Of a stretch of DNA of 64,000 nt, positions 42,940-61,977 are shown one piece after another. The position numbers and the translations under genes were made by a program. The notes under the pieces are model-generated. The model saw nothing but the letters and a program-made list of their open reading frames with translations, did no database searches and had not been told where the DNA came from. The DNA comes from an uncultured Thalassospiraceae bacterium. Its GTDB lineage: Bacteria; Pseudomonadota; Alphaproteobacteria; Rhodospirillales; JAPHRK01. Numbering within the stretch: the stretch's first letter is position 1; every line of letters starts with the position of its first letter. The stretch lies in contig CBDULT010000003.1 of NCBI GenBank assembly GCA_965368165.1, positions 133,474-197,473 of the forward strand, given 5' to 3'.

Positions 42940-42971
42940 TAATTAAAGATGTTTGGAAATAAGGTTTAACT

Positions 42972-43160: not shown

Positions 43161-43177
43161 GCGTTTACTTTATTAAG

Positions 43178-43711: not shown

Positions 43712-43729
43712 GGGATAGGAGATCGCACT

Positions 43730-44266: not shown

Positions 44267-44279
44267 GGGGGCATTAACA

Positions 44280-45962
44280 ATGGCTGCGACTCACGAATAT
44301 CGCACATGTCCTGACACTGGATTCAAAATTGATCTTAATGCTGATAAGCTGATCAAATGGAATGCCGTGTCAGCTGTAGTGTTCTTGCTCGTTGGTGGTC
44401 TTTTTGGCCTCCTGGTAGCTCTAACACGCTGGCCTACAGTACACTTACTGGACGCTGAACTTTTCTATCTGGCTCTGACTGCACACGGTGTGGACATCCT
44501 TTTGGTATGGCTGATCTTCTTTGAAATGGCCCTGCTTTACTTCTGCTCTAGCGTTCTCCTGCAATGCCGTGTAGCCACACCAAAACTCGGTTGGCTTGCT
44601 TACTGGCTGATGCTTGGTGGTGCTGTAATGGGTAACGTTGCCGTTCTGATGGGCGAATCCAGCGTTATGTTCACCTCTTACGTGCCGATGAAGGCTTCTC
44701 CCTTGTTCTACTTGGGTCTGATCCTTTTCGCCGTTGGTGCACTTATCGTTTGTTTCATCTTCTTCGGCACTTTGGTTATTGCTAAGAAAGAAAAAACCTT
44801 CGAGGGTTCAATTCCTCTGGTGACCTATGGTGCCATGGTTGCAGCTATTATCGCTGTTTACACCATCGTATCTGGTGCTGTGATCCTGATCCCGACCCTT
44901 GCTTGGTCATTAGGTTTTATTCCTTACATTGATACCCTGCTCTATAAGGTTATCTGGTGGGGACTTGGTCACTCTTCTCAACAGGTTAATGTTTCCGCTC
45001 AAATCTCTTGCTGGTACGCTGTTGCCGCAGTCGTTTTTGGTGCGAAGCCAATTTCCGAGAAGGTTTGCCGTACGGCCTTCCTCATGTACATCTTGTTCCT
45101 GCAGTTAGCTTCTGCTCACCACCTTCTGGTGGATCCAGGCCTGACTTCAGAATACAAGATCTTCAACACCTCTTACGCTTTCTACCTCGCTGTATTCGGT
45201 TCCATGATGCATGGTTTGACCGTTCCTGGCGCGATGGAATTGGCGCAGCGCCGCAAGGGCTACACCAAAGGGCTGTTTGAGTGGCTGAGGAAAGCTCCTT
45301 GGGGTAATCCTGCATTCTCAGGTACTTTCCTGTCGATCGTTATCTTTGGCTTCCTCGGTGGTATCACCGGCGTTGTTATGGGTACCGAGCAGTTGAACCT
45401 GATCATGCACAACACCATCTATGTACCGGGTCACTTCCACGCTACGACAGCTGGTGGTACCACATTGGCATTCATGGCTCTGTCTTACTGGTTGGTTCCA
45501 ACCTTATGGCAACGTGAGCTTTGGGCACCGGGTCTGGCTAAACTTCAGCCTTACCTGTTCGGTATCGGTGTTTCCGGTATTGCTCTGTTCCAAATGGGTG
45601 CTGGTACCTTGGGTGTTTCCCGTCGTCACTGGGATATGACCTTTGCTGATGCTGCTTTGACCTATGACTATCCAGCTGCGGCTCACCTTATGATGGCTCT
45701 TAATGGCGTGTTCGCTATTATCGCTGCTATCGGTGGTGGTCTCTTCTGTATCCAAATGGTCCTTACCATTCTTGGTAAGAAAAAACCAGCTCCTGCAGAA
45801 GCTCCTGCTGCACCAGCTGCCGAAGCTCTGACTGGTCACGGTCATGGCGCAGGTCTTGCTGTACCAGGAACCTTTGTTTTGGCTCTGATCTTCTTGACCA
45901 CTTTCGTTCTCTACTATTTCGTGAACTGGAAGTATCTGTCAGAAGTCTGGATCCTCAGCTAA
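44280..45962 (+). CDS. Heme-copper oxidase superfamily subunit I, B-family-like, lacking the cross-linked Tyr (candidate NO reductase)
   Basis: Six canonical His: H69, H231, H280/H281, H385/H387. The motif is GH231-SSQ-Q235 where A/B oxidases have H-x3-Y. An extra C-terminal helix follows a Pro/Ala linker. Confidence 0.9.
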   Translation: MAATHEYRTCPDTGFKIDLNADKLIKWNAVSAVVFLLVGGLFGLLVALTRWPTVHLLDAELFYLALTAHGVDILLVWLIFFEMALLYFCSSVLLQCRVATPKLGWLAYWLMLGGAVMGNVAVLMGESSVMFTSYVPMKASPLFYLGLILFAVGALIVCFIFFGTLVIAKKEKTFEGSIPLVTYGAMVAAIIAVYTIVSGAVILIPTLAWSLGFIPYIDTLLYKVIWWGLGHSSQQVNVSAQISCWYAVAAVVFGAKPISEKVCRTAFLMYILFLQLASAHHLLVDPGLTSEYKIFNTSYAFYLAVFGSMMHGLTVPGAMELAQRRKGYTKGLFEWLRKAPWGNPAFSGTFLSIVIFGFLGGITGVVMGTEQLNLIMHNTIYVPGHFHATTAGGTTLAFMALSYWLVPTLWQRELWAPGLAKLQPYLFGIGVSGIALFQMGAGTLGVSRRHWDMTFADAALTYDYPAAAHLMMALNGVFAIIAAIGGGLFCIQMVLTILGKKKPAPAEAPAAPAAEALTGHGHGAGLAVPGTFVLALIFLTTFVLYYFVNWKYLSEVWILS

Positions 45963-46016
45963 AGGCTGCGGTGAAGGTAATCTGTTAAAACGATTGCCGA
46001 GTTAACTTTTTAGGGG

Positions 46017-46057
46017 GGGCGCCTTTCCGGTCACGGAAGGGCGCCCTTCTTTTTTTC
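46017..46057 (+). terminator. Rho-independent terminator after HCO subunit I
   Basis: 13-bp GC-rich stem (46017-46029 / 46034-46046, one G-U pair), 4-nt loop, then TTCTTTTTTT. Confidence 0.7.
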
Positions 46058-46094
46058 TATAAGGGAAAATTTATTCCACGTGGGTTTGTTTTAG

Positions 46095-46108
46095 TTGACC
46101 TAGAACAA
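46095..46108. promoter_or_regulatory. FNR/Dnr-type box, one mismatch (TTGACctagAACAA)
   Basis: Lies just upstream of the SCO1 gene. The spacing implies a very short leader or use of the internal Met (MTKT, 46159). Confidence 0.35.
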
Positions 46109-46134
46109 TCCAAAGTGAGATTTGAAAACCTAAG

Positions 46135-47022
46135 ATGCTGAGCATGTTGATATCAAAAATGACCAAAACTTTGTTGAGTTTTTTTACGGCTCTTTTCGCC
46201 CTTGTGGTAATGATGGGGAACCTGTCTTTAGCGGCTCCAAGTGCTGTTATTGATGCTTGGCCTCCTAACGCCAAAGATATGGATCAAAAGGCCGCGTTTA
46301 AATATAGCCAAAGCGCGCTGAAGCACGTGATCAGAGACGCAAAATTTACGGATCAAAATGGCAACCCGGTTTCATTGGCTGATTTCAGGGGGAAACCCTT
46401 GGTCGTAAGCTTTATCTATACAAGCTGTGTTTCCGTTTGTGTCACCATTACTGATAGCCTGTTACATTCTCTAGATGTGGCGAACGAAACCTTTGGTGAA
46501 GATCAATTTAATATTCTAACCATTGGCTTTGATACCAGTTTTGACACGCCTGAAAGTATGAAAAAGTTTGCCGAAAGGCAGGATGCGGGAGCAAAAAACT
46601 GGATGTTTTTGAGCGGTGATATCCTCAATGTTTCCCAGCTTTCCGATGACTTGGGGTTCTTCTTCTATCGGACCCCAGAGGGGTTTGACCACCTGGCTCA
46701 AGTTACCGTGATTAATAAAGTTGGTAAGGTTTATAAACAGGTTTACGGTGAATCCTTTGATACGCCTCACCTTATTGAGCCCCTCAAGGATATTATTTAT
46801 CATACGGAAAAGTCGATTTTTACGGCCGAAGGGCTCTACAAGAAACTGCAGTTCTACTGCACTGTGTATGACCCGGAGACCGATAGATATAAGTTTGACT
46901 ATTCCTATTTTATCAGCTTATTTGCGGGAGTTACCGTGATGATAGTTCCTGCTTGGGTGCTGTTCAGAACCGTGCGAAGAACTCGAAGTGAGCGGAACGC
47001 ACGAAAAGCAAAATTAGTTTGA
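46135..47022 (+). CDS. SCO1/SenC copper chaperone with extra C-terminal segment and second TM helix
   Basis: N-terminal anchor and thioredoxin-fold CxxxC (SFIYTSCVSVCVT) with a downstream His (FDHLAQV). The C-terminal YCTVYDPETDRYKFDYS is followed by a TM helix. Confidence 0.8.
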   Translation: MLSMLISKMTKTLLSFFTALFALVVMMGNLSLAAPSAVIDAWPPNAKDMDQKAAFKYSQSALKHVIRDAKFTDQNGNPVSLADFRGKPLVVSFIYTSCVSVCVTITDSLLHSLDVANETFGEDQFNILTIGFDTSFDTPESMKKFAERQDAGAKNWMFLSGDILNVSQLSDDLGFFFYRTPEGFDHLAQVTVINKVGKVYKQVYGESFDTPHLIEPLKDIIYHTEKSIFTAEGLYKKLQFYCTVYDPETDRYKFDYSYFISLFAGVTVMIVPAWVLFRTVRRTRSERNARKAKLV

Positions 47023-47128
47023 CGATGGTCAAGGCGTCAAAGCCGCTCTAAACATATAGAACTGCTAATATTCAATACGAGTTTAAGGCCATTGGTCTTA
47101 TTGAAAATAATTCGAAAGGTTTCGTAAA

Positions 47129-48712
47129 TTGTTGGATGCATTTAAGACTGCACTCAGGGTGCCATTCCTCTATTTCGAAGGACTTCTGGATGCTATTTTT
47201 GGGCAGCGGTTTAATCCGGTGTACCATCTTGGCGCACTCTGCTGGTTTTTCTATTGGATCGTTGCAATTACGGGTCTTTACCTGTTCATGGTTTTTGATA
47301 CAGGCGTACATGTCGTATACGAATCAATTGAATGGTTAACCAATGAGCAGTGGTGGTTTGGCGGCATCGCCCGGAGCCTCCACCGTTATGCTTCTGATGG
47401 TATGGTTTTTGCCATGCTTATTCATATGCTGCGGGAATTTGCCTTAGATCGTTATCATGGTGTGCGGTGGTTTGCATGGTTTACAGGCGTGCCGCTGATC
47501 TGGCTTCTTTTGACTTCAGGGATTACAGGCTATTGGTTGGTCTGGGATGAATTAGCCCAGTACATGGCTGTCGCCTCTTTTGAATGGCTTGATTGGCTTT
47601 CAATCTTTAGTGAACCTATTGCCAACAACTTCTTGCGTGAAGGCAGCCTTGGGGATCGTTTCTTCACCTTGCTGATCTTCATCCACATTTTTGTGCCGCT
47701 ATTTATGTTGTTTATCATGTGGATTCATCTGCTGCGTATGGCGCGAGCTGAAATCAATCCACCGAAAGCGATTGCCTTGGGGGCCTTTGCTCTATTGCTT
47801 GTCCTCTCTTTGGTCTATCCAGCAACAAGCCACCCGCCTGCTGACCTGAGTAAAATTCCGGTCGTTCTTAATCTCGATTGGTGGTTCTTGTTCGGCTATC
47901 CCTTCTTGGATATGACAGGACCAGGAACTCTATGGGCTGTCGCGGTTATTGGCTCTATAATTATTGCTGTACTGCCTTTTGTTATTCCTCATCGTATACC
48001 GACCCCAGCAGTCGTTAACCTTGATAATTGTAATGGCTGTGGACGTTGTTTTGAGGACTGTCCCTTTGGTGCAGTAACAATTCAACCCCGGACGGATGGT
48101 CATCCTAAGTATGAATTTGAGGCTATTGTTAAGGATAGCTTCTGTACCGCATGTGGAACTTGTTCGGGGGCCTGTCCATCCTCAAGCCCTTATCGTCGTG
48201 GCGAAGAACTGGTCACGGGTATTGATCTTCCAGACGTCCCGCTGACGGCTATTCGGGCAAGGCTTAATGCTGAGGCTAAGCGCTTAAAAGGCGATGTTAA
48301 GATTGTTGTCTTTGGATGTGAATTCGGAGGGGCTTTGAAGGAACTCGAAAGCGATGTGGTCGGAACGGTGCAAATGTCTTGTATAGCCCAGGTTCCTCCC
48401 GCATTTATTGAATATGCTTTGTCTCGTGCTGGGTTCGACGGTCTCGTCCTTTCAGCTTGTCGCCCAGGGGATTGTTATCACCGATTGGGTGTCCATTGGA
48501 CTGAAGAACGTTTGACTGGTTATCGGGACCCCTACCTTCGTCCAAAAATTTCTCGTGACGCCATCCGTGTTACCTGGGCGCGTCCAACCGAAATGGGGAA
48601 AATTAAACGTGAACTTGGTGAGTTTGTTGAGACTGTTACCAACAGAAAGACGGCTCCTGTAATTGATTCTGCTGAAGTTACCGATGCTAACGAAACGACA
48701 ACAGGCGAGTAG
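47129..48712 (+). CDS. Fusion protein: di-heme cytochrome b core + 2x[4Fe-4S] ferredoxin domain + MvhD/FlpD-like domain
   Basis: H85/H99 and H186/H200 sit at the 14-residue register. Cluster motifs CNGCGRCFEDCP and CTACGTCSGACP. MvhD-like VVFGCEFGG...MSCIAQV...GFDGLVLSACRPGDCYH. TTG start. Confidence 0.8.
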   Translation: MLDAFKTALRVPFLYFEGLLDAIFGQRFNPVYHLGALCWFFYWIVAITGLYLFMVFDTGVHVVYESIEWLTNEQWWFGGIARSLHRYASDGMVFAMLIHMLREFALDRYHGVRWFAWFTGVPLIWLLLTSGITGYWLVWDELAQYMAVASFEWLDWLSIFSEPIANNFLREGSLGDRFFTLLIFIHIFVPLFMLFIMWIHLLRMARAEINPPKAIALGAFALLLVLSLVYPATSHPPADLSKIPVVLNLDWWFLFGYPFLDMTGPGTLWAVAVIGSIIIAVLPFVIPHRIPTPAVVNLDNCNGCGRCFEDCPFGAVTIQPRTDGHPKYEFEAIVKDSFCTACGTCSGACPSSSPYRRGEELVTGIDLPDVPLTAIRARLNAEAKRLKGDVKIVVFGCEFGGALKELESDVVGTVQMSCIAQVPPAFIEYALSRAGFDGLVLSACRPGDCYHRLGVHWTEERLTGYRDPYLRPKISRDAIRVTWARPTEMGKIKRELGEFVETVTNRKTAPVIDSAEVTDANETTTGE

Positions 48713-48721
48713 GGAAAAGAG

Positions 48722-49288
48722 ATGAAAACGAACATTGTTCCAGATAAATATTTCCCAGAAGGTATTGCCGAAAAAGTAACGCCTGCGGTGTTGGTTCGTC
48801 GCATAATAGGCTTGTCAGCTTTTGCTCTTCTGACCATGTTTATTATTGGATACTTTTCAGCGTCTCCGGCTTATCATCACTTGGCTGAAAACGAAGCCGT
48901 TATTAAAGTTAGTATTACCCATAACGGGAAACGCCTTCAGGCATGTGTGAAAAAGACACGGGCCGAGTTGGCAAAATTGCCTCCAAATATGCGGGCAAAG
49001 ATGACTTGCGGACGTGAAAGAACACCTGTTCTATTGGTTGTGGCTATTGATGGGAAAGAAATTTATCGTCATGTTTCAAAGCCTAACGGTCTTTCCAGTG
49101 ATGGAGCTTCTATTTTTTATCAAAAACTGATTGTTCCTACGGGGACTCACGAAGTAAGTGTCTTGATGCGTGACAGCGTGCGCGATGAAGGTTTTGATTT
49201 TGAATATAGAGATAAGGTTGATTTGACCAGTGGTCGCAACTTTGTTGTGACCTTTGATGAGCAAAATCGCAAATTTAAAATCTATTGA
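48722..49288 (+). CDS. Single-TM hypothetical protein co-transcribed with the cytochrome b fusion
   Basis: Starts 9 nt after the upstream stop. One TM helix (IIGLSAFALLTMFIIGYF), then a beta-rich domain with two Cys. Confidence 0.5.
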   Translation: MKTNIVPDKYFPEGIAEKVTPAVLVRRIIGLSAFALLTMFIIGYFSASPAYHHLAENEAVIKVSITHNGKRLQACVKKTRAELAKLPPNMRAKMTCGRERTPVLLVVAIDGKEIYRHVSKPNGLSSDGASIFYQKLIVPTGTHEVSVLMRDSVRDEGFDFEYRDKVDLTSGRNFVVTFDEQNRKFKIY

Positions 49289-49381: not shown

Positions 49382-50110
49382 GTGAGCCACGTGACAGAAA
49401 CCAGTTCCCAATTTTTACCGGATAACGCTCTTGGAGCTTTAAAAGCGACAGCTCTTTTTAAGCGGTTGCCGAAGGATCAAATCGCTACTCTTTTTAGCGG
49501 TGGGGCTGTTGAAGAAATGTCTCTTAATGAGGTCCTCTTTAAACAAGACGAAGATGCTGATCGCTTTTATTTAATTCTGAGTGGTCGCGTCGAATTGTTT
49601 GTTGAGTCGGCGAAACACAAAGAAAGCATTATCGATATTATTGGTCCGGGTGAATATTTTGGAATTGCGTCTATCTTTGAAAAAGGGGCTTTCCAAAACG
49701 GCGCTAAAGTCGTTGAAGACGCAACTTTCGTGGTCATGCCAGCGATTCCTTTCCTTGAGCACTTAGAGGGCAACTTCCCCCTTATTAAAGATATGATGGC
49801 CAGCATGTCTTTTCATCTTCGCTCCCTGGTCCGTCAGGTGAGTGAGCTAAAGCTCAAAACAACGGGGCAACGGTTGGGGAGTTTTCTTCTTGGGCTTACC
49901 GATGTTGAAACCGGCAAGGCTCAGGTAAAACTTCCCTATGACAAAAAATTACTGGCGAATCGTTTAGGGATGAAACCTGAAAGCCTCTCAAGAGCTTTAG
50001 GGAAATTAAGAGATGTGGGAGTTGTTGGGGACCATGACTCATTGATTTTAGAAGATGTGGAAACTTTAAGAATATTTTGTCAGGATTCTGACTTGATGCA
50101 GTCATCATAA
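49382..50110 (+). CDS. Crp/Fnr-family regulator, Dnr/NnrR type (no N-terminal Cys cluster)
   Basis: cNMP-binding-like beta-roll, dimerisation helix, and an HTH with the FNR-family E-x-x-S-R motif (MKPESLSRALGKL). GTG start. Confidence 0.85.
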   Translation: MSHVTETSSQFLPDNALGALKATALFKRLPKDQIATLFSGGAVEEMSLNEVLFKQDEDADRFYLILSGRVELFVESAKHKESIIDIIGPGEYFGIASIFEKGAFQNGAKVVEDATFVVMPAIPFLEHLEGNFPLIKDMMASMSFHLRSLVRQVSELKLKTTGQRLGSFLLGLTDVETGKAQVKLPYDKKLLANRLGMKPESLSRALGKLRDVGVVGDHDSLILEDVETLRIFCQDSDLMQSS

Positions 50111-50147
50111 TGCGAACCTGCGTTGGGGATTTAAAGGAAATAGGGAT

Positions 50148-50846
50148 TTGAAGTCAGTATCACGGTTATTAAGCGATGAAGACCTCGAACTGGTCTGTAA
50201 AGCACCAACCTTTATTGAACTCCCAGAAGAAGACGTTGAGCGATTGATGTCCAGTGCTTCAGCCCGGAGCATGCCCCGTCATACCTTATTGTTTAGTCAA
50301 GGCGACCCTGCTGATCGATTCTATGTGGTCCTTGGGGGGAAAGTTAAACTTTTCACTGCCATGGAAAGTGGTGATGAGGGGGTCGTCGAAATAGTTGAAC
50401 CCATCCACACTTTTGCCGAAGCGGCGATGTTTGCTTCTGGCAAATTTCCTGTAAATGCTGAAGTTGTCGAAAACTCAGTATTGGTCCAGGTAAGTGCCGA
50501 GCCTTTTTTTAGAGAGCTTTCGCAAAACACAGCCTTGGCTTTTAAAATCATGGCGGCAATGTCACGTCGTCATCGTCGCCTGCTTAGGCAAATCTCCGAC
50601 CTTAAATTAAAGTCCCCAGGTCAACGCTTAGGGTCGTTCTTGCTCTCTTTGACGGAGAAGCTAGAGGGAAAGGCTCATGTCAAACTTCCCTTCGATAAAA
50701 CCCTTATTGCCAGCCATGTGGGCATGAAACCAGAAAGCCTTTCTCGGGCTATGGCGCGCCTTAGAGATATTGGTGTGATATGTGAGAGGCGCGATGTCGA
50801 GATTAATGATATCAACGCCCTCAGGGTCTTCTGCGGCGAAGAGTAG
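50148..50846 (+). CDS. Second Crp/Fnr-family regulator, Dnr/NnrR type, tandem paralogue
   Basis: Same architecture and HTH (MKPESLSRAMARL). Strong similarity to the upstream copy (GQRLGSFLL.LT...GKA.VKLP.DK.L). TTG start. Confidence 0.85.
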   Translation: MKSVSRLLSDEDLELVCKAPTFIELPEEDVERLMSSASARSMPRHTLLFSQGDPADRFYVVLGGKVKLFTAMESGDEGVVEIVEPIHTFAEAAMFASGKFPVNAEVVENSVLVQVSAEPFFRELSQNTALAFKIMAAMSRRHRRLLRQISDLKLKSPGQRLGSFLLSLTEKLEGKAHVKLPFDKTLIASHVGMKPESLSRAMARLRDIGVICERRDVEINDINALRVFCGEE

Positions 50847-51269
50847 TTACTTCGTAACGGTAACTTCCCCTGTCATCCCTTCCTGATCCCAATGGGGGCC
50901 GCAGAGGTAAGGGTAATTACCCTCATCCTCAAATTTGATTTCAAAGGCCTCATCAGGGAAAAACCTTTCTGATTCGGGCATTTTGGCCTCTTTTGGCCAA
51001 ACACTATGGCTGGTCCGCTTATCAACATTTACCCACCGAACGGTCATTCCTGGCTTGATGGTAATTTTCATCGGGCAGAAATTATATTTGTAAGTTGTCA
51101 CCACGACCGTGTTCGCAGGTAACTTCTCACTGCCAAATAATTCCTGATAGCGTGCGTCGGCTTTTTTACAGATTGCTGCGCGCTCAGCATCTGTGCTTCC
51201 TGCTTGTGCTGAGGCAGGAAAGGTAAAGGCTGAAATTATGGCTAATGTGAGAAGTGCTTTCTGAAACAT
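50847..51269 (-). CDS. Periplasmic type-1 copper protein (cupredoxin; pseudoazurin/plastocyanin-like)
   Basis: Signal peptide (FPASAQA). Ligand set is His (RTSHSVW) plus C-GP-H-WDQEG-M at the C-terminus. Confidence 0.8.
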   Translation of the reverse strand: MFQKALLTLAIISAFTFPASAQAGSTDAERAAICKKADARYQELFGSEKLPANTVVVTTYKYNFCPMKITIKPGMTVRWVNVDKRTSHSVWPKEAKMPESERFFPDEAFEIKFEDEGNYPYLCGPHWDQEGMTGEVTVTK

Positions 51270-51350: not shown

Positions 51351-51391
51351 CAAAAAAAAGATGGCGGGGATAAATTCACCCCCGCCATCTT
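51351..51391 (-). terminator. Rho-independent terminator downstream of the NirT fusion gene
   Basis: 12-bp stem (51358-51369 / 51380-51391). On the minus strand it is followed by a T-run (plus-strand A-run 51352-51357). Confidence 0.7.
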
Positions 51392-51440: not shown

Positions 51441-54119
51441 TTAGTTTTTGATTGCGTTTATTTCAGCGTCACCATTATCGATGCCGAGCTTGTATTCCAG
51501 TGATACGTGGTGGAAACGAGCTGTTGTGTAGTCATCGTGAATGGCAAAACCAACGGTGTAGAGTTTACCAGGTTCAAGAGAAACCAAACCGTTGGCAGCC
51601 TTTAAAGGCCGTTTCATGGTTACGGTCCAAACGCCATCGGCGAGGGTGCCCGTATATTCTACCGATTGCCCCCCCGTCATATCACGTTTGTCGAGAACAA
51701 CACCTGATTCAGAAACGCCACCATTCCCACTGAGGAAGCGGGTGAGGTCCATGAACTGGCCGGCGCTTTTCAGGCCATCAATATCGCCTTGTGGTTTGGC
51801 TTTGTCCCAGGCACCGCGTGGTTTGCCATCGTTGCCGTTGACTTCCCATTCGGTTTTGGTTTCCAGCAAATATTTAGTAACACCTGCTTTTGCCGCGTCC
51901 TGGTCTTTAGGGTGGTCAGGCATGTAGCGTGAGTCATGGTGACAGGTTGCCCAACAGCCAGCATGTGTGGCTTTTTCAACCTTGTCATCATCAATCATCA
52001 TGGCGAACTTGATTTGGTTCGCAGGGTCCATTTTACCGCCGTCGACGAAAGGTACAGGGGCGTGGGCTACGTCAGGCCACTGGAACTGCATGTGAAGGTT
52101 TTCACCATCATTAACAGCTTTAACGCTGACTTTAATATGGCCGCGTTTGCCAGGAATTGGGGTCGGCTCGGCTTTTTCACCAGAGACGATCTTGGCACCC
52201 ATTTGCTCTTGTTCACCTTCGTGACATTCGGTGCAGCGATCATCTAATTTCTTGATCGCACGCGCCCCACCATGATCAGAGCCTTTGTAGACCCACTCAA
52301 GGGAAGCCTGCCCAGGGTATAAGAAAGTGATTTCCTTTGCAGTTGCTTTGCTAAAGTCGATGCTTCCACCACCACTAGAAGAAGCGGCGGCAGGCGTGGC
52401 AGCATCAGCAGCAGGAGCGGCAGAAACCGTCCCCCCCGCTGGGGCAGCAATGGTTGCGGCATTTACATCAGCTTCCGCATTGTCGATGCCAACCTTGTAT
52501 TCCAAGGAAACATGGTGGAACCGAGCATTGGTGAAGTCATCGTGAATGGCAAAGCCCATGGTGTAGAGCTTGTCTTTCTCGAAGGATACAAAACCATCTG
52601 AGGCTTTCAGCGGACGGGTTAAGAAAGCAACCCATTTTCCATCAACCAAATTGGCTGTGATAGTAGATTTAGCACCACCTTCCATAACGCGTTTGTCGAG
52701 GACATAACCCGTTTCGGTTTTCTTGTCGCCGCTTTTGTAGCGAACCAAGTCAAGGAAGACGCCGTCTTTCTTGTAGCCATCGATTTCAGCTTGAGGACGA
52801 GCTTTGTCCCAGGCTCCGCGAGGAACGCCATCGTTGCCGTTGACCTCCCACTCGGTTTTAGTTTCCAGCAAATATTTTGTGATACCCGCTTTAGCCGCAT
52901 CCTGGTCTTTAGGGTGATCAGGCATGTAGCGTGAATCGTGGTGACAGGTTGCCCAGCACCCGGCATGGTCAGCTTTTTCAACTTTGCCATCGTCAAACAT
53001 GACAGCAAGTTTGATTTGGTTGGCTGGATCCATTTTCCCGCCGTCAACAAAAGGAACAGGGGTGTGGCCTGCATCGTCCCATTCAAAGCGCATGTAAAGG
53101 TTTGTGCCGTCATTGGCAGCCTTTACGTTTGCTTTAATGTGACCTCGTTTGCCTGGGATGGGAGTCGGTTCGGCTTTCTCACCAGAAACGATCTTGGCAC
53201 CCATTTGCTCTTGTTCACCTTCGTGGCACTCGGTGCAACGATCGTCTAGTTTTTTGATCGCGCGTGCGCCACCATGGTCGGAGCCTTTATAGACCCACTC
53301 AAGGGAAGCTATGCCAGGGTAGAGGAGAGTAATGTCCTTCCCTTCTACACCGTCCCAAGCAATCGCTTCGGCACTTCCACCACCTGAGGCAGCGGCGGCT
53401 TTTGGTGCCGGAGCTGCTGCGGCAGCTTTTTTAGCTTCTTCAGCTTTTTGGGCATCAGCAGCGGCCTTGAGTTCACCTTTGGTTGGTTTCTTTTCTTTTG
53501 GTGGCAAGTGACGATCATCGCCTGCTTTACCATCATAAGCGTCTTCACCTTCGCGAAGCAGGCCGCTAACATCTCTGTGAGCGATGCCTTTATGACAATC
53601 GATGCAGGTCATGTTGTCGGCTTGTGCCAATTGGTGATTTTTCCAAGCACGTTTTTTCTGTTTGTCTTGCTTCATGCTATCCCAGGAGTGACAGTTACGA
53701 CATTCTCTGGAATCAGTTTCCTTCATCGCCTTCCAAACATTTTTGGCGAGCTGGAAACGCTTCGCTTCAAATTTTTCAGGCGTATCAATTGTTCCAAGAA
53801 CCTTATGAAGAACCTCGTTCGAGGCTTGGATCTTCCGGATCATTTTATAGATCCAAGGCTTAGGGACGTGACAGTCTGAACAGGTTGCACGAACACCAGT
53901 TCGGTTCTGGAAGTGAACCGTTTCTTTGTATTCCTGATAGACGTTGTCTTCCATTTCATGACATGAAATACAGAAAGGCAATGTCTGGGTAGCTTCCATA
54001 ACCGTATTGAAAGCACCCCAAAAAACGATACCGACAACAAAAAATACTGCTGCGGCGAATAATGATGCCCCTAAAGGGCGCCAGGAAAGGATACGTGTAA
54101 TCATATCACCAATGGCCAT
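51441..54119 (-). CDS. nirT: NapC/NirT tetraheme quinol dehydrogenase fused to two tandem heme-c + beta-sandwich (NirB / cytochrome c-552-like, EB_dh-type) modules
   Basis: N-terminal TM helix plus CISCH, CSDCH, CRNCH and TCIDCHKGIAH, then a Lys/Ala/Pro linker. Two ~300-aa repeats follow, each with CTECH and CWATCH. Strong SD (GGGGGGAAG). Confidence 0.85.
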   Translation of the reverse strand: MAIGDMITRILSWRPLGASLFAAAVFFVVGIVFWGAFNTVMEATQTLPFCISCHEMEDNVYQEYKETVHFQNRTGVRATCSDCHVPKPWIYKMIRKIQASNEVLHKVLGTIDTPEKFEAKRFQLAKNVWKAMKETDSRECRNCHSWDSMKQDKQKKRAWKNHQLAQADNMTCIDCHKGIAHRDVSGLLREGEDAYDGKAGDDRHLPPKEKKPTKGELKAAADAQKAEEAKKAAAAAPAPKAAAASGGGSAEAIAWDGVEGKDITLLYPGIASLEWVYKGSDHGGARAIKKLDDRCTECHEGEQEQMGAKIVSGEKAEPTPIPGKRGHIKANVKAANDGTNLYMRFEWDDAGHTPVPFVDGGKMDPANQIKLAVMFDDGKVEKADHAGCWATCHHDSRYMPDHPKDQDAAKAGITKYLLETKTEWEVNGNDGVPRGAWDKARPQAEIDGYKKDGVFLDLVRYKSGDKKTETGYVLDKRVMEGGAKSTITANLVDGKWVAFLTRPLKASDGFVSFEKDKLYTMGFAIHDDFTNARFHHVSLEYKVGIDNAEADVNAATIAAPAGGTVSAAPAADAATPAAASSSGGGSIDFSKATAKEITFLYPGQASLEWVYKGSDHGGARAIKKLDDRCTECHEGEQEQMGAKIVSGEKAEPTPIPGKRGHIKVSVKAVNDGENLHMQFQWPDVAHAPVPFVDGGKMDPANQIKFAMMIDDDKVEKATHAGCWATCHHDSRYMPDHPKDQDAAKAGVTKYLLETKTEWEVNGNDGKPRGAWDKAKPQGDIDGLKSAGQFMDLTRFLSGNGGVSESGVVLDKRDMTGGQSVEYTGTLADGVWTVTMKRPLKAANGLVSLEPGKLYTVGFAIHDDYTTARFHHVSLEYKLGIDNGDAEINAIKN
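51462..52373 (-). repeat. Internal coding repeat 2 of the NirT fusion (aa 583-886)
   Basis: See repeat 1. Shared blocks include PVPFVDGGKMDPANQIK, HAGCWATCHHDSRYMPDHPKDQDAAKAG, KYLLETKTEWEVNGNDG and ARFHHVSLEYK. Confidence 0.9.
52476..53384 (-). repeat. Internal coding repeat 1 of the NirT fusion (aa 246-548)
   Basis: Aligns along its whole length with aa 583-886 at an offset of 334 aa (1002 nt). The first 57 aligned residues from LEWVYKGS are identical. Confidence 0.9.
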
Positions 54120-54195: not shown

Positions 54196-54233
54196 TTGAG
54201 AAAAAGGCGGGTATGAAGTTTTCCATACCCGCC
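54196..54233 (-). terminator. Hairpin plus T-run between nirS and the NirT fusion gene
   Basis: Perfect 10-bp stem (54206-54215 / 54224-54233), 8-nt loop, and TTTTTCTC on the minus strand. It lies 27 nt after the nirS stop. Confidence 0.6.
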
Positions 54234-54259
54234 TGATCCTTATTTTATGTGACGCTTAC

Positions 54260-55870
54260 TTAGGTTACGTGGTGTACCCGGTTGTAAACGTTGAACTTAC
54301 CAGTAGGTGTTTCGAGGTTTTTGATGCGTTTGATCTCTTTAAGAGTTTTCACATCATAGACAACGATTTCACCATTGAGCCAATCTTTCTTGCCGCCACG
54401 AGCCCAGATAGAGAACCAGATTTCGGTTCCATCTTTGTTAAACTCTTGGTGAACAGCAACAGATTTCTCACGTTCGGTGAGTCTCAGAGTCTTAACAACT
54501 TTACCGGTTTTCTTATCGATAACTTTCATAGACTGCTGAATTTCTGGCTCAGGGTGTTTGGTTTGATCAGCAAACACATATGGGCTGTTTGGGTGTGTCC
54601 GGATGAACAAGCCTGCACCATCTGTAGCGATTTTTTTACAGATTTTCCAAGCGTTATCAGGATGACCTTTAGGATCGTTACCCCATGTGGTGACTTTACC
54701 TTCGCCGAGGTGAGTCGTACCAGCAACAGGACCACAATCAGGATCTACCCAGTTAGCACCTGGTCCTGGGTGAGGTTTCTTGCCCGTTTCGATAGAAGCA
54801 ACAAACTTACGGTTGGTTGCGTCCATAACTTCGATACGGTTAGAAGCGTTCGCAGCAATTTGGAAGTACTGCTGTGTTGGGTCAAAGAAGCCATCGTGAA
54901 GGAACTTGTGGCTGTCGATTTGTTCGATACGCAGGTTAGCGATATCGGAGTAATCAACCTGCCAAAGTTGGCCGAGTTCTTTAACGGCAACGATCCAGGA
55001 AGGAGCTGTTGGTGTGTTGTAGATAGCTGCAACACGAGCTTCGTTTACATATTCGCCATCAACGTTAACACCGCGGGTGGAGATAACTTTAAGAGGCTCC
55101 ATGGTGATTGCGTCAAGGATAACGAAGTGAGGAGGCCAGTAGCCGCCACCGATTACGTATTTGTCTTTCCATTTACCATAATGGGAAACGGCAACATCAC
55201 GTGCATCGTATGCAACTTGCGTCGAGGCGACAACTTTTGGAGGGTTCATGAATAAGTCGATTTTAGACAAAAGACCATCACGACCAATTGCATACCAGAA
55301 ACGACCATCGGATGATTCTTTCATCACGTGGATAGCGTAACCAGTGTCGACTTTAGCAACAACTTTCTTGGTGTCGCCATCGATGATGCCAACTTTACCA
55401 GCGTCACGCAGAATGACCAGGAAGAAGTTTTCCCAGTTAAGACCGTGCATAGGCTTGGTTGGATACTCAGAAGGATCAACAAAAACCTGACGAGTTTTTT
55501 TCATGTCGTCAATAGACATTTCGCGAGGTTGAGGAGGTGTCATTTGGATGTAGGTGGCCAAATCTTTGATTTGTTGCTTAGAGAATATATCATCAAAGTT
55601 GTTCATGCCGCCTTCGGTGCCGAGCGTAATGATCTTTTCAAGACGCTTCTGACCGAGTTTTTGAGTTGCTTCTGGCAACAGGCTCTTACCTGTAGCGCCT
55701 TTACGCAGAGCACCGTGACAACCAGCACAACGCTGGAAGTAGAGCTCTTTAGAAGCTTCGAATGCTTCTTTAGAAAGGGTTGGTTCTGCAGCAAGTGCTG
55801 CGGCCCCGGTTCCCAGTGTTAGGCCGGCAGCCAAGGCAAACAAGGCGCCGGTAAGTGCTACTTTTTTCAT
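54260..55870 (-). CDS. nirS: Cytochrome cd1 nitrite reductase
   Basis: Signal peptide and heme-c site CAGCHG in FQRCAGCHGALRKGATGKSL. An eight-bladed d1 beta-propeller sequence runs throughout. Start taken at MKKVALTG (the track's GTG at 55924 is less likely). Confidence 0.95.
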   Translation of the reverse strand: MKKVALTGALFALAAGLTLGTGAAALAAEPTLSKEAFEASKELYFQRCAGCHGALRKGATGKSLLPEATQKLGQKRLEKIITLGTEGGMNNFDDIFSKQQIKDLATYIQMTPPQPREMSIDDMKKTRQVFVDPSEYPTKPMHGLNWENFFLVILRDAGKVGIIDGDTKKVVAKVDTGYAIHVMKESSDGRFWYAIGRDGLLSKIDLFMNPPKVVASTQVAYDARDVAVSHYGKWKDKYVIGGGYWPPHFVILDAITMEPLKVISTRGVNVDGEYVNEARVAAIYNTPTAPSWIVAVKELGQLWQVDYSDIANLRIEQIDSHKFLHDGFFDPTQQYFQIAANASNRIEVMDATNRKFVASIETGKKPHPGPGANWVDPDCGPVAGTTHLGEGKVTTWGNDPKGHPDNAWKICKKIATDGAGLFIRTHPNSPYVFADQTKHPEPEIQQSMKVIDKKTGKVVKTLRLTEREKSVAVHQEFNKDGTEIWFSIWARGGKKDWLNGEIVVYDVKTLKEIKRIKNLETPTGKFNVYNRVHHVT

Positions 55871-56036
55871 AAAGTATGCCCCCACAAAATTAAAACAGGT
55901 CGTTAATCGAATAACCGCTCTCACATGAGAACAAAAAAGCTGCTAAATCTGAGATGTTAAACCAAAGACTCAGCAAAATCATTGCGCCCAAGACGCGGTA
56001 TGCACAAATTACTACGCGCCACCCTCTAGGTCCACC

Positions 56037-56428: not shown

Positions 56429-57208
56429 GTGAGTAAGGATGTCAAAGTACATTTGGTCGGAGGGGGTCCAGGGGACCCTGAGCTGCTAACCGTAAAGGCT
56501 GTCCGTCTTCTGCAAGAAGCAGAGGTGGTTATTCTTGATCGCTTGATTTCCGAAGATATCCTCAAGCTCATCCCTAAGGGTACAAGCTGTATCTATGCGG
56601 GCAAGGCCCCTGGTCGGCACTATGTATCTCAAGATGAAATTAATGAAATGTTGGTTAAGGTCGCCCAATCTGGGCGCAAAGTAGTCCGTCTTAAAGGCGG
56701 CGACCCTTTTGTTTTTGGTCGCGGCGGCGAAGAGGCTTTGTTCCTTGCTGAGCATGGCATTCAATTTGAAATTGTTCCCGGTATTACGGCTGGTATGGGC
56801 TGCGGAAGCTCTTTAGGTATTCCGCTTACACACCGTGGTTTGGCTAAAAGTGTTCGTTTTGTTACGGGCCATAGTCGCAATAATGGGGAACTGGACCTTA
56901 ACTGGAAAAGCCTTGCAGACCCGGATACCACACTGGTCATCTACATGGGGCTAGGCACCATAGGTGAGGTGACATCAAATCTTATTTCGGCAGGACTGCC
57001 CGCAAGTACCCCTGTAGCAGCCGTTGAAAAAGGCTCAACCGAAGACGAGCGATGCTGTATAACCACCTTATCTGACCTTGAAGGTAAGGTGCGGGTTGAA
57101 GGCTTTATGCCTCCGACTTTGTTTATCGTTGGTAAGGTTGTTACGCTTGCCAAGCAGTTGAACCCAACTCTTGAAGATGTTGATGCTGGTTTGAGAATCG
57201 TTGGTTAA
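56429..57208 (+). CDS. nirE: Uroporphyrinogen-III C-methyltransferase (SUMT) of the heme d1 pathway
   Basis: VHLVGGGPGDPELLTVKA and GGDPFVFGRGGEE motifs. GTG start with an SD, positioned first in the nir biogenesis operon. Confidence 0.9.
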   Translation: MSKDVKVHLVGGGPGDPELLTVKAVRLLQEAEVVILDRLISEDILKLIPKGTSCIYAGKAPGRHYVSQDEINEMLVKVAQSGRKVVRLKGGDPFVFGRGGEEALFLAEHGIQFEIVPGITAGMGCGSSLGIPLTHRGLAKSVRFVTGHSRNNGELDLNWKSLADPDTTLVIYMGLGTIGEVTSNLISAGLPASTPVAAVEKGSTEDERCCITTLSDLEGKVRVEGFMPPTLFIVGKVVTLAKQLNPTLEDVDAGLRIVG

Positions 57209-57226
57209 TACTGGGTATTACTTAAA

Positions 57227-57577
57227 ATGAAATTTTTCCGCCTGTCCCAAGGGGCATGGCTTTGCGCCGCCATTCTGTCTCTTCCGTTTTTTGTACCTTC
57301 TGCCGCAGGTGCAGAGCCTTCTGCGGAGCGTAAAGCTGAACTGGCTTATTTTCTTGAGCAGGACTGTGGCTCTTGCCATGGCTTGACCCGCAAGGGGGGG
57401 CTTGGGACTCCGCTTACGCCAGAAAGTGTCGCTAAAACAGATGACGAAACCCTGTTTGATGTCATCATGAATGGTATCCCTGGAACGCCTATGCCGCCCT
57501 GGAAGGCGTTGCTAAGTTCCGATGAAGTCCATTATTTGATCCAGCTCATAAGAAAAGGGAAAAACCACGATGGTTAA
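57227..57577 (+). CDS. nirC: Monoheme cytochrome c (c55X-type)
   Basis: Signal peptide and CGSCHG. Small class-I cytochrome located between nirE and nirF. Confidence 0.8.
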   Translation: MKFFRLSQGAWLCAAILSLPFFVPSAAGAEPSAERKAELAYFLEQDCGSCHGLTRKGGLGTPLTPESVAKTDDETLFDVIMNGIPGTPMPPWKALLSSDEVHYLIQLIRKGKNHDG

Positions 57578-58748
57578 GTTTTTACGCCCGTTTGCTTTGG
57601 TCCTGTTTGCCCTAACCCTGAGTGGGTGCGTGACTTCCTTGCGTGGTACAGGTGACATGGGCCTTATTATTGAGCGTACTGACGGTTCTGTTCTTATTGT
57701 CGACCATTCGGTAGGCAAACCATTAGGACGGGTTGAAGGCTTGGGAGACTTAAGCCATGCCTCTGCTGTTTATTCCCGAGATGAGCGCTATGCCTATATT
57801 TTTGGCCGCGATGGGGGGCTGACCAAAGTTGATATCCTGACCCAAAAAATTGTGGGTCGGGTTATTCAGGGGGGCAACTCTATTGGAGGGGCGATCTCTC
57901 AGGATGGCAGCTTGATCGCCGTTTCCAATTACAAACCGGGGGGAGTTAAAGTCTTTGACTCCAAAACATTGGAACTTGTTGCTGACGTTCCCGCCATGGA
58001 AGAGGGCGAAACGAAAGGGTCTAAGACGGTTGGTCTTGTTGATGTGCCGGGGCAAAAATTTGTTTACGGCCTTTATGATGCGGGCGAGATATGGTCTCTC
58101 GATTTCTCTAAAGGTCGAACACCAAAGGTTACGAAATACAGAGATACGGGCACTCAGCCTTATGACGGTCTCGTTACTCCAGACGGACGTTACTATATTT
58201 CTGGCCTGTTTGGGGAAGATGGGCTTTCCTTGCTTGATCTGTGGCATACCGAAAAAGGCGTAAAACGTATCCTGGCGGGGTATGGCAAAGGTGAAAAATC
58301 TTTGCCTGTCTACAAAATGCCTCACCTCGAAGGTTGGGCCGTTGCAGATGATCTTGCTTTCCTCCCTGCTGTTGGTCGGCATGAACTTTTGGTGGTCAAT
58401 CGCAAAACCTGGAAAGAGGTGGGTCGGGTTCCTGTTCATGGGCAACCTGTTTTTGCCATGGGCCAACCAGATGGTCGCCAGATTTGGGTGAATTTTGCTT
58501 TGCCTCACAATGACACCATTCAGGTAATTGATGTCGAGACCTTAAAAGTCATTAAAACCATGAAACCCGGCAAAGGCGTTCTCCACATGGAGTTCACCCC
58601 CAGAGGGGATAAAGTTTGGATGTCGGTTCGCGATGCAAACCGGGTTGATATCTATGATACGGTGACTTTTGAGCGTCTTGGGAATTTTGAAGCTAAACGC
58701 CCAAGCGGTATCTTTTTCACCAATCGTGCCCATAAAATTGGTTTGTAG
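57570..58748 (+). CDS. nirF: Heme d1 biosynthesis protein NirF (cd1-like beta-propeller, no heme-c domain), lipoprotein
   Basis: Lipobox LTLSGC. Sequence is homologous to the NirS/NirN propeller. It overlaps nirC by 8 nt. Confidence 0.85.
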   Translation: MVKFLRPFALVLFALTLSGCVTSLRGTGDMGLIIERTDGSVLIVDHSVGKPLGRVEGLGDLSHASAVYSRDERYAYIFGRDGGLTKVDILTQKIVGRVIQGGNSIGGAISQDGSLIAVSNYKPGGVKVFDSKTLELVADVPAMEEGETKGSKTVGLVDVPGQKFVYGLYDAGEIWSLDFSKGRTPKVTKYRDTGTQPYDGLVTPDGRYYISGLFGEDGLSLLDLWHTEKGVKRILAGYGKGEKSLPVYKMPHLEGWAVADDLAFLPAVGRHELLVVNRKTWKEVGRVPVHGQPVFAMGQPDGRQIWVNFALPHNDTIQVIDVETLKVIKTMKPGKGVLHMEFTPRGDKVWMSVRDANRVDIYDTVTFERLGNFEAKRPSGIFFTNRAHKIGL

Positions 58749-58790
58749 TAGTATAATAATTACCTAAACAGGCCACGCCGCTACTAAAAT

Positions 58791-58902
58791 ACGTCACTCC
58801 CGCGAAGGCGGGAGTCCAGAAATGAAGGTATAGATATTTAATGATGATCGACCGCACAGTTCATGCAACCCTGGATTTCCGCCTTCGCGGGAATGATGAC
58901 GT
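58791..58902. repeat. 112-bp MITE/REP-like palindromic element between nirF and nirD
   Basis: Left end is ACGTCACTCCCGCGAAGGCGGGAGTCCAG. The reverse complement of the right end is ACGTCATCATTCCCGCGAAGGCGGAAATCCAG. Each end also contains its own GCGGGA/TCCCGC mini-hairpin. Confidence 0.6.
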
Positions 58903-58917
58903 TTGAGCTAAGTATTT

Positions 58918-59370
58918 ATGGATCAAGAGTTAAAACAACGGCTTTTGGAAGAGTATCAGCGGGACTTTCCTTTCAGTGCCACCCCCTATGCCGATATTGC
59001 TGAGGATTTGGGGGTGAGTGAAGAAGAAGTTCTCGAGACTTTCCAGGCCCTTTGTGAGGGTGGGACGATCAGCCGTATTGGGGCGGTCTTTAAGCCTCAT
59101 AGCGTTGGGGCCAGTACTTTAGCCGCTCTTTCTGCACCAGAAAATGATTTAGAAAAAATTGCCAAAATAGTTAGTGATTTCAAAGAAGTGAACCATAACT
59201 ATGAGCGTGAACATGCTTTTAATCTGTGGTTCGTGGTCACAGCAGATGATCAAGACGGTGTTGACCGCACTCTTGCAGAGATCGAAAAAAAAACCGGCTG
59301 TCAGGTGCTTAATCTGCCCATGCTGAAAGGCTATCATCTCGACTTAGGATTCAAAATCAAATGGAACTAA
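58918..59370 (+). CDS. nirD: Siroheme decarboxylase subunit (Lrp/AsnC-like NirD)
   Basis: LEEYQRDFPFSATPYADIAEDLGVSEEEVL and VNHNYEREHAFNLWFV are typical NirD/L/G/H (AhbA/B) motifs. Confidence 0.8.
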   Translation: MDQELKQRLLEEYQRDFPFSATPYADIAEDLGVSEEEVLETFQALCEGGTISRIGAVFKPHSVGASTLAALSAPENDLEKIAKIVSDFKEVNHNYEREHAFNLWFVVTADDQDGVDRTLAEIEKKTGCQVLNLPMLKGYHLDLGFKIKWN

Positions 59371-59852
59371 GTGAAACAGATAAGCTATTGGTCGGAGTCG
59401 TTGCTAAGGGTCTTCCGATTATCTCTCGTCCCTACGAAGAAATCGGTCGCCAAATAGGCTTGAGCGAGGAAGAGGTTATTCTCCGTCTTGCTGATCTATG
59501 CACAGCGGGTACCATCAAACGCTTTGGTGTGGTCGTGCGCCACCATGAACTTGGCTATAAGGCCAATGCCATGTGCGTTTGGGATATTCCGGATGGGCGT
59601 ATGGAAGAGATTGCCGAAAAATTCAGCTCATATGATTTTGTTACCCTTTGTTATCAACGCCCCCGACGTCTTCCGCAGTGGCCTTATAGCTTGTTTTGTA
59701 TGATCCATGGCAAAGAGCGCGCGGAAGTGTTGAAGCAGGCAGAGCAATTGGTCAAAGATTGCGGGCTGGAAGATGTCCAGCGTGATGTGCTATTCAGCGG
59801 GCGACGTTTTAAACAAAGAGGGGCGCGCTACGGCATGGTCGCATCGCAATAG
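59361..59852 (+). CDS. nirL: Siroheme decarboxylase subunit NirL
   Basis: Paralogue with IKRFGVVVRHHELGYKANAM...VTLCYQRPRRLPQWPYSLFCMIHG. It overlaps nirD by 10 nt. Confidence 0.8.
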   Translation: MELSETDKLLVGVVAKGLPIISRPYEEIGRQIGLSEEEVILRLADLCTAGTIKRFGVVVRHHELGYKANAMCVWDIPDGRMEEIAEKFSSYDFVTLCYQRPRRLPQWPYSLFCMIHGKERAEVLKQAEQLVKDCGLEDVQRDVLFSGRRFKQRGARYGMVASQ

Positions 59853-59856
59853 ATTT

Positions 59857-60324
59857 ATGAGAGAAGATAAAACCCACTTGCTCGATGACAAAGACCGGGC
59901 TTTGATCAATCACTATCAAGGGGATTTCCCCTTGTGCGAAAACCCCTTTGCTGTGGTTGGTAAAGCCGTTGGTTTAACCGAAGATGAAGCTATTCAACGC
60001 ATTCAAAGGCTTTTGGATGAAGGCGTCCTTACCCGTTTTGGTCCTTTATATCATGCCGAGCGCATGGGCGGGGGATTGACCCTGGCGGCGATGAAAATTC
60101 CTCCTGAAGATTTCGATGAAGCTGTTGAGAAAGTTAATCAATTCCCGGAAGTTGCTCATAACTATGCGCGGGAACATGCGTTGAATATGTGGTTTGTTCT
60201 GGCGACGGAAACACCAGAACGCATTGAAGAGGTTGTTGCAGAGATTGAAGAGGCGACAGGCTATAAGGTTTACAATATGCCTAAAGAAGAAGAGTTCTTT
60301 GTTGAACTCAAATTTGAGGCCTGA
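59857..60324 (+). CDS. nirG: Siroheme decarboxylase subunit NirG
   Basis: INHYQGDFPLCENPFAVVGKAVGLTEDEAI and VAHNYAREHALNMWFV. The ATG at 59857 is preferred over the track start at 59773. Confidence 0.8.
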   Translation: MREDKTHLLDDKDRALINHYQGDFPLCENPFAVVGKAVGLTEDEAIQRIQRLLDEGVLTRFGPLYHAERMGGGLTLAAMKIPPEDFDEAVEKVNQFPEVAHNYAREHALNMWFVLATETPERIEEVVAEIEEATGYKVYNMPKEEEFFVELKFEA

Positions 60325-60329
60325 GTATT

Positions 60330-60809: not shown

Positions 60810-60822
60810 GGATACTAAGTTT

Positions 60823-61965: not shown

Positions 61966-61977
61966 GAACTGGAAATC

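Follow-up and report, generated by a model that had tools for sequence, protein, structure and literature searches.

A NirT-NirB-NirB fusion cytochrome encoded behind nirS in an uncultured Thalassospiraceae bacterium

The DNA analyzed here (hereinafter the window) is a stretch of 64,000 nucleotides from an uncultured Thalassospiraceae bacterium of the alphaproteobacterial order Rhodospirillales (GenBank assembly GCA_965368165.1, contig CBDULT010000003.1, positions 133,474 to 197,473). Directly downstream of nirS, the gene for the cytochrome cd1 nitrite reductase, it contains a gene, here termed nirTBB, whose product joins in one polypeptide relatives of the two accessory cytochromes of the Pseudomonas stutzeri nirSTB system, NirT and NirB, with the NirB unit present twice. 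The gene is accompanied by a cupredoxin gene, by the genes for heme d1 biosynthesis and by a divergent heme-copper oxidase-like cluster (Table 1 and below), and its product probably passes electrons from quinol through NirT and NirB to NirS without the bc1 complex.

Domain architecture and fold of the nirTBB product

The open reading frame (ORF) list and its translation give nirTBB as an uninterrupted frame of 892 codons on the minus strand, running from an ATG at position 54119 to a TAA at 51443-51441. A preliminary description of the window had picked out this frame, though not its strand, and had read it as a NirT fused to two NirB modules; both the Pfam domains and alignments with Pseudomonas NirB and NirT uphold that reading. 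Scans with hidden Markov models recover NapC/NirT once and EB_dh twice, all above the Pfam cut-offs. Residues 21-183 cover positions 10-171 of the 174 in the Cytochrom_NNT model (PF03264) at 239.1 bits, against a cut-off of 24.1, and the two modules, scanned singly, match EB_dh (PF09459; cut-off 33.3) with 115 bits for module 1 and 119.6 bits for module 2, the latter spanning positions 3-236 of 236.

Table 1. Features of the nirTBB locus (positions in the window)
Feature	Position	Strand	Remarks
nirS, cytochrome cd1 nitrite reductase	54260..55924	-	Cytochrom_D1 E = 1.7e-117, plus cytochrome c domain; presumed electron acceptor
FNR/DNR-type box TTGACCAACATCAA	56317..56330	+	divergent nirS/nirE intergenic region; position suggestive only
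Hairpin in the nirS/nirTBB gap	54205..54234	-	13-bp, GC-rich, followed by TTTTTCT; kept in the orthologous locus L002
nirTBB ORF	51441..54119	-	892 aa: NirT domain, linker, NirB module 1, linker, NirB module 2
N-terminal membrane anchor, aa 17-37	54009..54071	-	hydrophobic stretch; AlphaFold helix 20-46
NapC/NirT tetraheme domain, aa 21-183	53571..54059	-	Pfam PF03264 E = 3.1e-71
NirT CXXCH site C50	53958-53972	-
NirT CXXCH site C80	53868-53882	-
NirT CXXCH site C140	53688-53702	-
NirT CXXCH site C172	53592-53606	-
Linker 1, aa ~186-258	53346..53564	-	Ala/Lys/Glu/Gly/Pro-rich; mostly disordered in model
NirB-type (EB_dh) diheme module 1, aa 259-548	52476..53345	-	CTECH C295 (53223-53237), CWATCH C388 (52941-52958)
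Linker 2, aa ~549-592	52344..52475	-	Ala/Ser/Gly/Thr/Pro-rich; disordered in model
NirB-type (EB_dh) diheme module 2, aa 593-892	51444..52343	-	CTECH C629 (52221-52235), CWATCH C722 (51939-51956)
Terminator-like hairpin (AGATGGCGGGG...CCCCGCCATCT) and eight-T run	51352..51390	-	directly 3' of the nirTBB stop; read from sequence
Cupredoxin (plastocyanin/azurin family)	50847..51269	-	directly downstream of nirTBB; candidate additional electron carrier

The N-terminal part shows the layout of the NapC/NirT family, a single N-terminal anchor followed by four CXXCH motifs, and the anchor is preceded by Arg9 and Arg14, which argues for an N-in orientation with the remainder of the protein in the periplasm. 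With the 201-aa NirT encoded in a Pseudomonas sp. nirQOP/nirSTB locus it shares 63% identity (E = 4e-89). The anchored tetraheme unit that the preliminary description had delimited at residues 1-185 is thus recovered in the PF03264 match, the anchor and the four motifs alike. In one distant one-module NirT-NirB fusion (P0285, 554 aa) the first NirT heme motif is CTGMCH, a CX3CH rather than a CXXCH motif.

Module 2 aligns end to end with the 289-aa standalone NirB of a Pseudomonas sp. (39% identity, E = 6e-70), and module 1 as query is 42-46% identical to the NirB proteins of Thauera and Rhodocyclaceae. When a separate gene located after nirS-nirT in a Thauera metagenome-assembled genome (MAG) served as test query, every match was an EB_dh protein of about 290 aa. 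The standalone homologs bear source names such as 'denitrification system component cytochrome C-552' and 'cytochrome c-552 precursor', and one Pseudomonas sp. match sits in the layout nirQ-nirO-nirP / nirS-nirT (201 aa)-nirB (289 aa), the published arrangement of P. stutzeri. Judged from these similarities the modules are true homologs of NirB (cytochrome c-552) and the protein is a NirT-NirB-NirB. The placement of NirB in the EB_dh family, made in the preliminary description, is borne out by both modules and by standalone NirB; the alignment envisaged with the P. stutzeri proteins was made with their Pseudomonas sp. counterparts.

The linkers measure, by motif boundaries, 79 aa (27% Ala, 14% Lys) and 46 aa (35% Ala, 13% Ser), and across 132 two-module proteins the first ranges over 79-120 aa and the second over 36-58 aa. 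Both fused modules carry an insertion of about 28 aa (LLETKTEWEVNGNDG.PRGAWDKA.PQ; residues 415-445 and 749-779), modeled as an additional β-hairpin and helix, which the standalone NirB proteins of Pseudomonas and Thauera lack. Fused proteins can also have short-type modules: in P0002 it is module 1 that is short, and in P0006 both are. The long and short variants have thus been swapped or homogenized differently among close relatives.

A motif scan places CXXCH at C50, C80, C140, C172, C295 and C629 and the CX3CH motif CWATCH at C388 and C722, exactly where the preliminary description had put them. All 16 cysteines of the protein fall in these eight motifs, as befits a genuine multiheme c-type cytochrome, and eight covalent heme-c sites are predicted, at the top of the 6-8 hemes previously suggested. 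Each module, with one CXXCH and one CX3CH, has two predicted heme-c sites per NirB unit. Across 388 aligned modules, drawn from two-module, one-module and standalone proteins, C295, C298, H299, C388, C392 and H393 are 100% conserved, and H282, H526, H535, H536, M306, M363, M374, M399, K324, K370 and K415 are conserved at 97-100%; the second His of CWATCHH is not conserved. About 29 residues at the first CXXCH of the standalone NirB proteins P0125, P0132 and P0194 resemble DUF1924/cytochrome c'' at the motif level (E = 1e-5 to 1e-7 for DUF1924, 0.013 for the cytochrome c'' structure 1e8e). We did not adopt a cytochrome c''/DUF1924 domain assignment, as the match is confined to this motif and the window's own modules gave no match at E <= 1.

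The AlphaFold model of module 2 (mean predicted local distance difference test score, pLDDT, 73; predicted template modeling score, pTM, 0.79) has a confident β-sandwich core and less confident heme-binding loops. The best Foldseek matches in the PDB were EbdC, the heme-b γ subunit of ethylbenzene dehydrogenase (2ivf_C, E = 1.4e-8, template modeling score 0.59 on the target), and NxrC of the Kuenenia nitrite oxidoreductase (7b04 chains C and O, E = 2e-7 to 5e-7), followed by CBM9 and DOMON domains; at about 10% sequence identity these are relationships at the level of the fold. A family sequence profile also reaches 2ivf_C (E = 1.6e-4) and 7b04_C (E = 7.8e-4); a single-sequence search of the PDB with the full protein gave no match at E <= 0.01. 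The beta-rich modules of the preliminary description can accordingly be described as β-sandwiches of the EbdC/NxrC fold, and we know of no solved NirB-type, heme-c version of the EB_dh fold. A partial HMMER alignment of uncertain register would place the Lys ligand of EbdC beside the invariant His-His of RFHHVS and its Met ligand near the CWATCH region. On this alignment the heme attached at CX3CH may sit in the ancestral heme-b pocket, and the CXXCH heme may be an addition.

The full-length model, built on a 61-sequence alignment, shows a membrane helix and resolves both sandwiches well but the NirT domain poorly. It has no fixed arrangement between domains (pTM 0.47), and pLDDT falls below 50 at residues 198-213, 235-246 and 563-585, that is, within both linkers. 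The 'wire' of the preliminary description finds no support in this model: with linkers of low complexity and low pLDDT and no fixed domain arrangement, the NirB modules are more likely flexibly tethered diheme shuttles than parts of a rigid or continuous heme chain.

Distribution, relatives and evolution of the doubled arm

A search with the full-length protein at E <= 1e-10 retrieved 2167 proteins, and among the 120 best matches almost every one is 840-960 aa long with the architecture NNT + EB_dh + EB_dh. In total more than 130 two-module homologs were retrieved. Their hosts include Sedimenticola, Thiodiazotropha, tubeworm and snail endosymbionts, Chromatiaceae, Magnetovirga, Terasakiella and Rhodospirillales, and in their sources they are named 'NapC/NirT family cytochrome c', 'cytochrome C552' or 'ethylbenzene dehydrogenase-related protein'. 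One-module fusions dominate a survey of 80 species-representative loci: about 65 have NirT with one module and 10 have NirT with two, while two have split nirT and nirB and one has a NirT-NirB together with a separate NirB gene. This last locus (L011 7935-10915, from a gammaproteobacterial MAG) encodes a NirT-NirB of 603 aa, measured stop to stop, and then a separate NirB of 360 aa, and looks like an intermediate between the one- and two-module architectures or a split of the two-module form. When clustered at 50% the NirB-module family comprises 464 representatives at E <= 1e-3, with the two-module fusion amounting to approximately one cluster.

The literature searched mentions a 'fused NirTB' once, for Halomonas sp. 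2A (PMC13086519), and searches directed at the fusion turned up no account of a tandem NirB. The suggestion that no fusion with a duplicated arm had been described therefore stands for the doubled arm, as far as the literature found goes, although the fusion itself is abundant in databases and NirTB has been published. Hence NirT-NirB-NirB is a variant of a known system, common in marine denitrifiers, of which only the doubled arm appears undescribed.

Relative to the separate NirT and NirB of P. stutzeri (nirSTB(M)), the present protein has the same two families in the same order after nirS, and the motif content of Pseudomonas nirSTB is also the same, with four CXXCH in NirT and one CXXCH plus one CX3CH in NirB; it differs in being one polypeptide with low-complexity linkers in which NirB occurs twice. 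The one-module NirTB proteins of Colwellia, Thalassotalea, Amphritea, Thioclava and others (~570-660 aa) have the same NirT-linker-NirB arrangement behind nirS at about 45-60% identity, and lack the second NirB module. A comparable design, with a quinol-oxidizing NapC/NirT tetraheme domain and an extra, C-terminal heme domain that docks on a specific periplasmic reductase and delivers electrons to it, is seen in the pentaheme cytochromes TorC/DorC, whose extra domain is a monoheme cytochrome c domain. In the present protein the extra domain is instead a diheme EB_dh β-sandwich that occurs twice, and NirS, not a molybdoenzyme, is the presumed partner. The NirT part aligns with positions 22-179 of the torC model TIGR02162, and the scores lie below the TorC cut-offs (232 versus 478 bits for TIGR02162, 176 versus 455 for NF011606), only the N-terminal tetraheme half being aligned.

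EbdC, NxrC and other γ subunits of type II DMSO-reductase enzymes share the β-sandwich fold and are likewise heme-binding electron-transfer modules. EbdC reportedly holds one non-covalent heme b with Met/Lys ligation, and such γ subunits are said to partner Mo/Fe-S subunits. In contrast, the NirB modules carry two invariant heme-c attachment motifs and have no molybdoenzyme neighbors: the major ORFs scanned across the 64-kb window include no genes for molybdopterin α or Fe-S β subunits, and the neighbors are nir genes. The γ-subunit cut-offs are also missed (36.4 versus 169.85 bits for TIGR03477, 18.6 versus 400 for NF042980), with about 55 C-terminal residues aligning. For the tethered arms, the cytochrome c_y of Rhodobacter, in which a membrane anchor and a long, flexible Ala/Pro-rich linker allow a heme domain to shuttle electrons between membrane partners, serves as a working analogy only; it is an unrelated class I cytochrome c, its anchor lacks a quinol-oxidizing domain and it bears a single arm.

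Metagenome-derived contigs are notoriously prone to mis-assembly at tandem repeats of about 1 kb, and a doubled arm could in principle be an artifact of assembly or annotation, through a collapsed or expanded repeat or the reading-through of two genes. The two module copies, however, are 72% identical in DNA with a longest exact match of 38 nt, and where they encode the same residue 40% of the codons show a synonymous difference, which together indicate that the repeat is neither mis-assembled nor very recent. The frame is uninterrupted, the identical protein is present on two independent public contigs, an ortholog with 85% identity and the same architecture occurs in a Rhodospirillales MAG, and the two-module layout is shared by the above homologs from many lineages. 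The artifact is effectively refuted, and we accord it a negligible chance. A recent duplication or gene conversion in this genome was likewise rejected, given the many synonymous differences and the lack of long identical DNA tracts.

At the protein level the two modules of nirTBB are 77% identical over 295 aa (BLASTP E = 1e-176). The same value is the median for the two modules within one protein across the 132 two-module proteins (range 59-98%), whereas modules at the same position in different lineages are only about 50-60% identical. Linking proteins by clear positional orthology yields 41 separate groups, and between groups the positional signal is small (mean +0.017). Two alignment columns are nonetheless position-specific throughout the family, namely A335 in module 1 versus T in module 2, and V versus A just before the module. 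The simplest reading of these patterns is concerted evolution, with a single old duplication and repeated homogenization by gene conversion keeping the arms alike. Fully independent duplications in each lineage are less likely in light of the weak positional signal and the two position-specific columns. Under either history selection maintains two similar arms.

Gene neighborhood and expression signals

The preliminary description had placed the fusion directly behind nirS; this holds in the window, and of 81 related loci 72 have nirS as the immediate upstream neighbor. The same slot is occupied by split nirT and nirB in Thauera, Rhodocyclaceae and Pseudomonas, and elsewhere by NirT-B, by NirT-B with a further B, or by NirT-B-B. 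Such natural fusions behind nirS are strong gene-fusion evidence that NirT and NirB work as one unit. A cupredoxin gene lies downstream of the fusion in 37 of the 81 loci, including the split Thauera locus, a slot that presumably corresponds to nirM in the nirSTBM order of P. stutzeri.

A strong ribosome-binding site (GGGGGGAAG) is located 7 nt 5' of the nirTBB ATG. The gap of 140 nt between nirS and nirTBB contains a 13-bp hairpin and T-run, and, apart from a single G-U wobble substitution, the hairpin is kept in the locus of the 85%-identical ortholog (L002, 7870-7899). This element may be a partial terminator, an attenuator setting the NirS:NirTBB ratio or a means of stabilizing the mRNA. 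A second, strong terminator-like hairpin separates nirTBB from the cupredoxin gene, which has its own promoter-like site at 51333-51304. A scan of the whole window for FNR/DNR boxes found five against 3.5 expected, not above chance, with none in front of nirTBB. Besides the box in the nirS/nirE intergenic region, one (TTGATTTAACTCAA, 43178-43191) lies in a sensible position upstream of the COX2-like gene. Transcription of nirTBB presumably starts at the nirS promoter and reaches the gene by read-through, perhaps in attenuated form, in agreement with the polycistronic nirSTB mRNA reported in P. stutzeri (PMC8954225).

Divergent from nirS, at 56429-63537 on the plus strand, is an ordinary nir accessory operon with a complete set for heme d1 biosynthesis and assembly: nirE (uroporphyrinogen-III methyltransferase), nirC (a small cytochrome c), nirF, nirN, four AhbA/B-like nirD/L/G/H genes and nirJ (TIGR04051, 604 bits). 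On the other side of nirTBB, 41848-49288 on the plus strand holds a gene for a CtaA/COX15 heme A synthase followed by genes for a 178-aa COX2-like CuA subunit, a COX1 of 560 aa that is very divergent (69 bits against a CtaD cut-off of 670), an SCO1/SenC protein, a 527-aa protein fusing cytochrome b to an FlpD domain and two 4Fe-4S motifs, and a protein of 188 aa without a family match. The gene order matches that of the norSY-senC-orf1 cluster, called 'sNOR' in genome papers on Nitrosomonas, and sNOR-like clusters are also near nirS-nirTB in loci L002, L010, L054 and L076. Between this cluster and the cupredoxin gene are two tandem regulators of the Crp/Fnr family (FtrB/Dnr-like, 242 and 232 aa; 49382-50846, plus strand), both convergent with the nirS-nirTBB-cupredoxin strand. 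The remainder of the window consists of ordinary chromosomal genes.

Electron flow to NirS and its alternatives

The above observations suggest how the protein might function. The N-terminal helix would anchor NirT-NirB-NirB in the inner membrane, and the periplasmic NapC/NirT tetraheme domain would oxidize quinol, with the electrons passing through its four hemes. The diheme NirB modules, tethered on their 79-aa and 46-aa linkers, would collect electrons from the NirT hemes, dock on NirS and reduce it, either directly or via the co-encoded cupredoxin, and might possibly serve the sNOR-like enzyme too. Nitrite would thereby receive electrons from the quinol pool independently of the bc1 complex. 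The sequence and model analyses establish the domain identities, the number of heme-c sites, the membrane anchor, the flexible linkers and the conserved linkage to nirS. Quinol oxidation, the direction of electron flow, the partner and the bypass of bc1 are deduced from what is known of these families and from the gene-fusion argument. In nirSTB-type denitrifiers the route from NirT through NirB to NirS has reportedly been proposed since 1991 and is said to be a proposal still. It is also stated as a working hypothesis in the literature (PMC8954225), and the ZoBell strain requires NirT to reduce nitrite (PMC13086519, PMC8954225).

Several points weigh against this route. The N-terminal domain scores 255 bits with the NCBIfam model TIGR02161 (napC_nirT), below the cut-off of 310.6, with 159 of 185 model positions aligning, so that it is best described as a relative of the NirT clade that lies under the strict threshold; it is also of low confidence in the AlphaFold models, which contain no heme. 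The link to P. stutzeri NirB runs through the Pseudomonas sp. ortholog in the same gene layout and through source names. With a hairpin and T-run between their genes, NirS and NirTBB are perhaps not expressed in a fixed ratio. Finally, the cupredoxin and the divergent heme-copper, sNOR-like cluster nearby could furnish the real or additional acceptors.

The last point can be developed into a distinct proposal, that the arms reduce the cupredoxin, the CuA-containing sNOR-like NorSY or both, instead of or besides NirS, whereby the protein would be a general branch point from quinol to the periplasm for denitrification. The recurrence of the cupredoxin gene behind the fusion agrees with it, as does the presence of the COX2-like CuA subunit, divergent COX1, SenC and cytochrome b/ferredoxin protein some 2.2-7.7 kb away, a cluster found again in the four loci named above. 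We regard it as unlikely, since nirS is linked to the fusion far more closely (72 of 81 loci) than are the cupredoxin (37/81) and the NOR-like cluster (4/81), and the cupredoxin gene has its own promoter-like site behind a strong terminator. Still less probable, to the point of being very unlikely, is that the NirB modules are not simple carriers and themselves act on NirS or on nitrogen oxides, for instance through reductive activation of cd1, NO binding or scavenging, or peroxidase-like chemistry, with NirT supplying no more than the reducing power. Catalytic activation of cd1 by NirT/NirB has been raised as a possibility (PMC13086519), and Rhodocyclus species retain NirB without NirS (PMC8954225). 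The modules also possess invariant His and Met residues beyond the need of two bis-ligated hemes (H282, H526, H535, H536, M306, M363, M374, M399), and the first heme site of some standalone NirB proteins has the short local likeness to cytochrome c''/DUF1924 noted above. That likeness, however, extends over only about 29 residues at the CXXCH and is absent from the window's modules, the closest solved folds are electron-transfer subunits, and no catalytic-site signature was found.

Accordingly, we favor as the probable reading a single polypeptide joining the accessory cytochromes of a P. stutzeri-type nirSTB system, with NirB doubled and electrons passing from quinol through NirT and NirB to NirS without bc1. 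The concerted evolution of the arms hints, speculatively, that both do the same job, for instance serving the two protomers of the NirS homodimer. One may go further and picture the arms, held close to identity in each lineage by gene conversion, as matched to these protomers, with NirT-B-B and NirS2 forming a defined, membrane-tethered quinol:nitrite oxidoreductase supercomplex that needs neither bc1 nor soluble carriers, and with the CX3CH heme seated in the ancestral heme-b pocket, where the motif His and His535/536 would replace the Met/Lys pair of EbdC; this fuller picture is doubtful and is offered as a tentative extension.

The doubled, concertedly evolving arm is a tidy example of repeat homogenization inside a respiratory protein. 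The NirT-NirB fusions in general offer a single-polypeptide handle for biochemical tests of the NirT to NirB to NirS route. A route independent of bc1 would lower the energy yield of nitrite respiration, and may influence nitrite accumulation and the release of NO and N2O, in hosts that include abundant marine sulfur oxidizers and animal symbionts such as Sedimenticola, Thiodiazotropha and the tubeworm endosymbionts.

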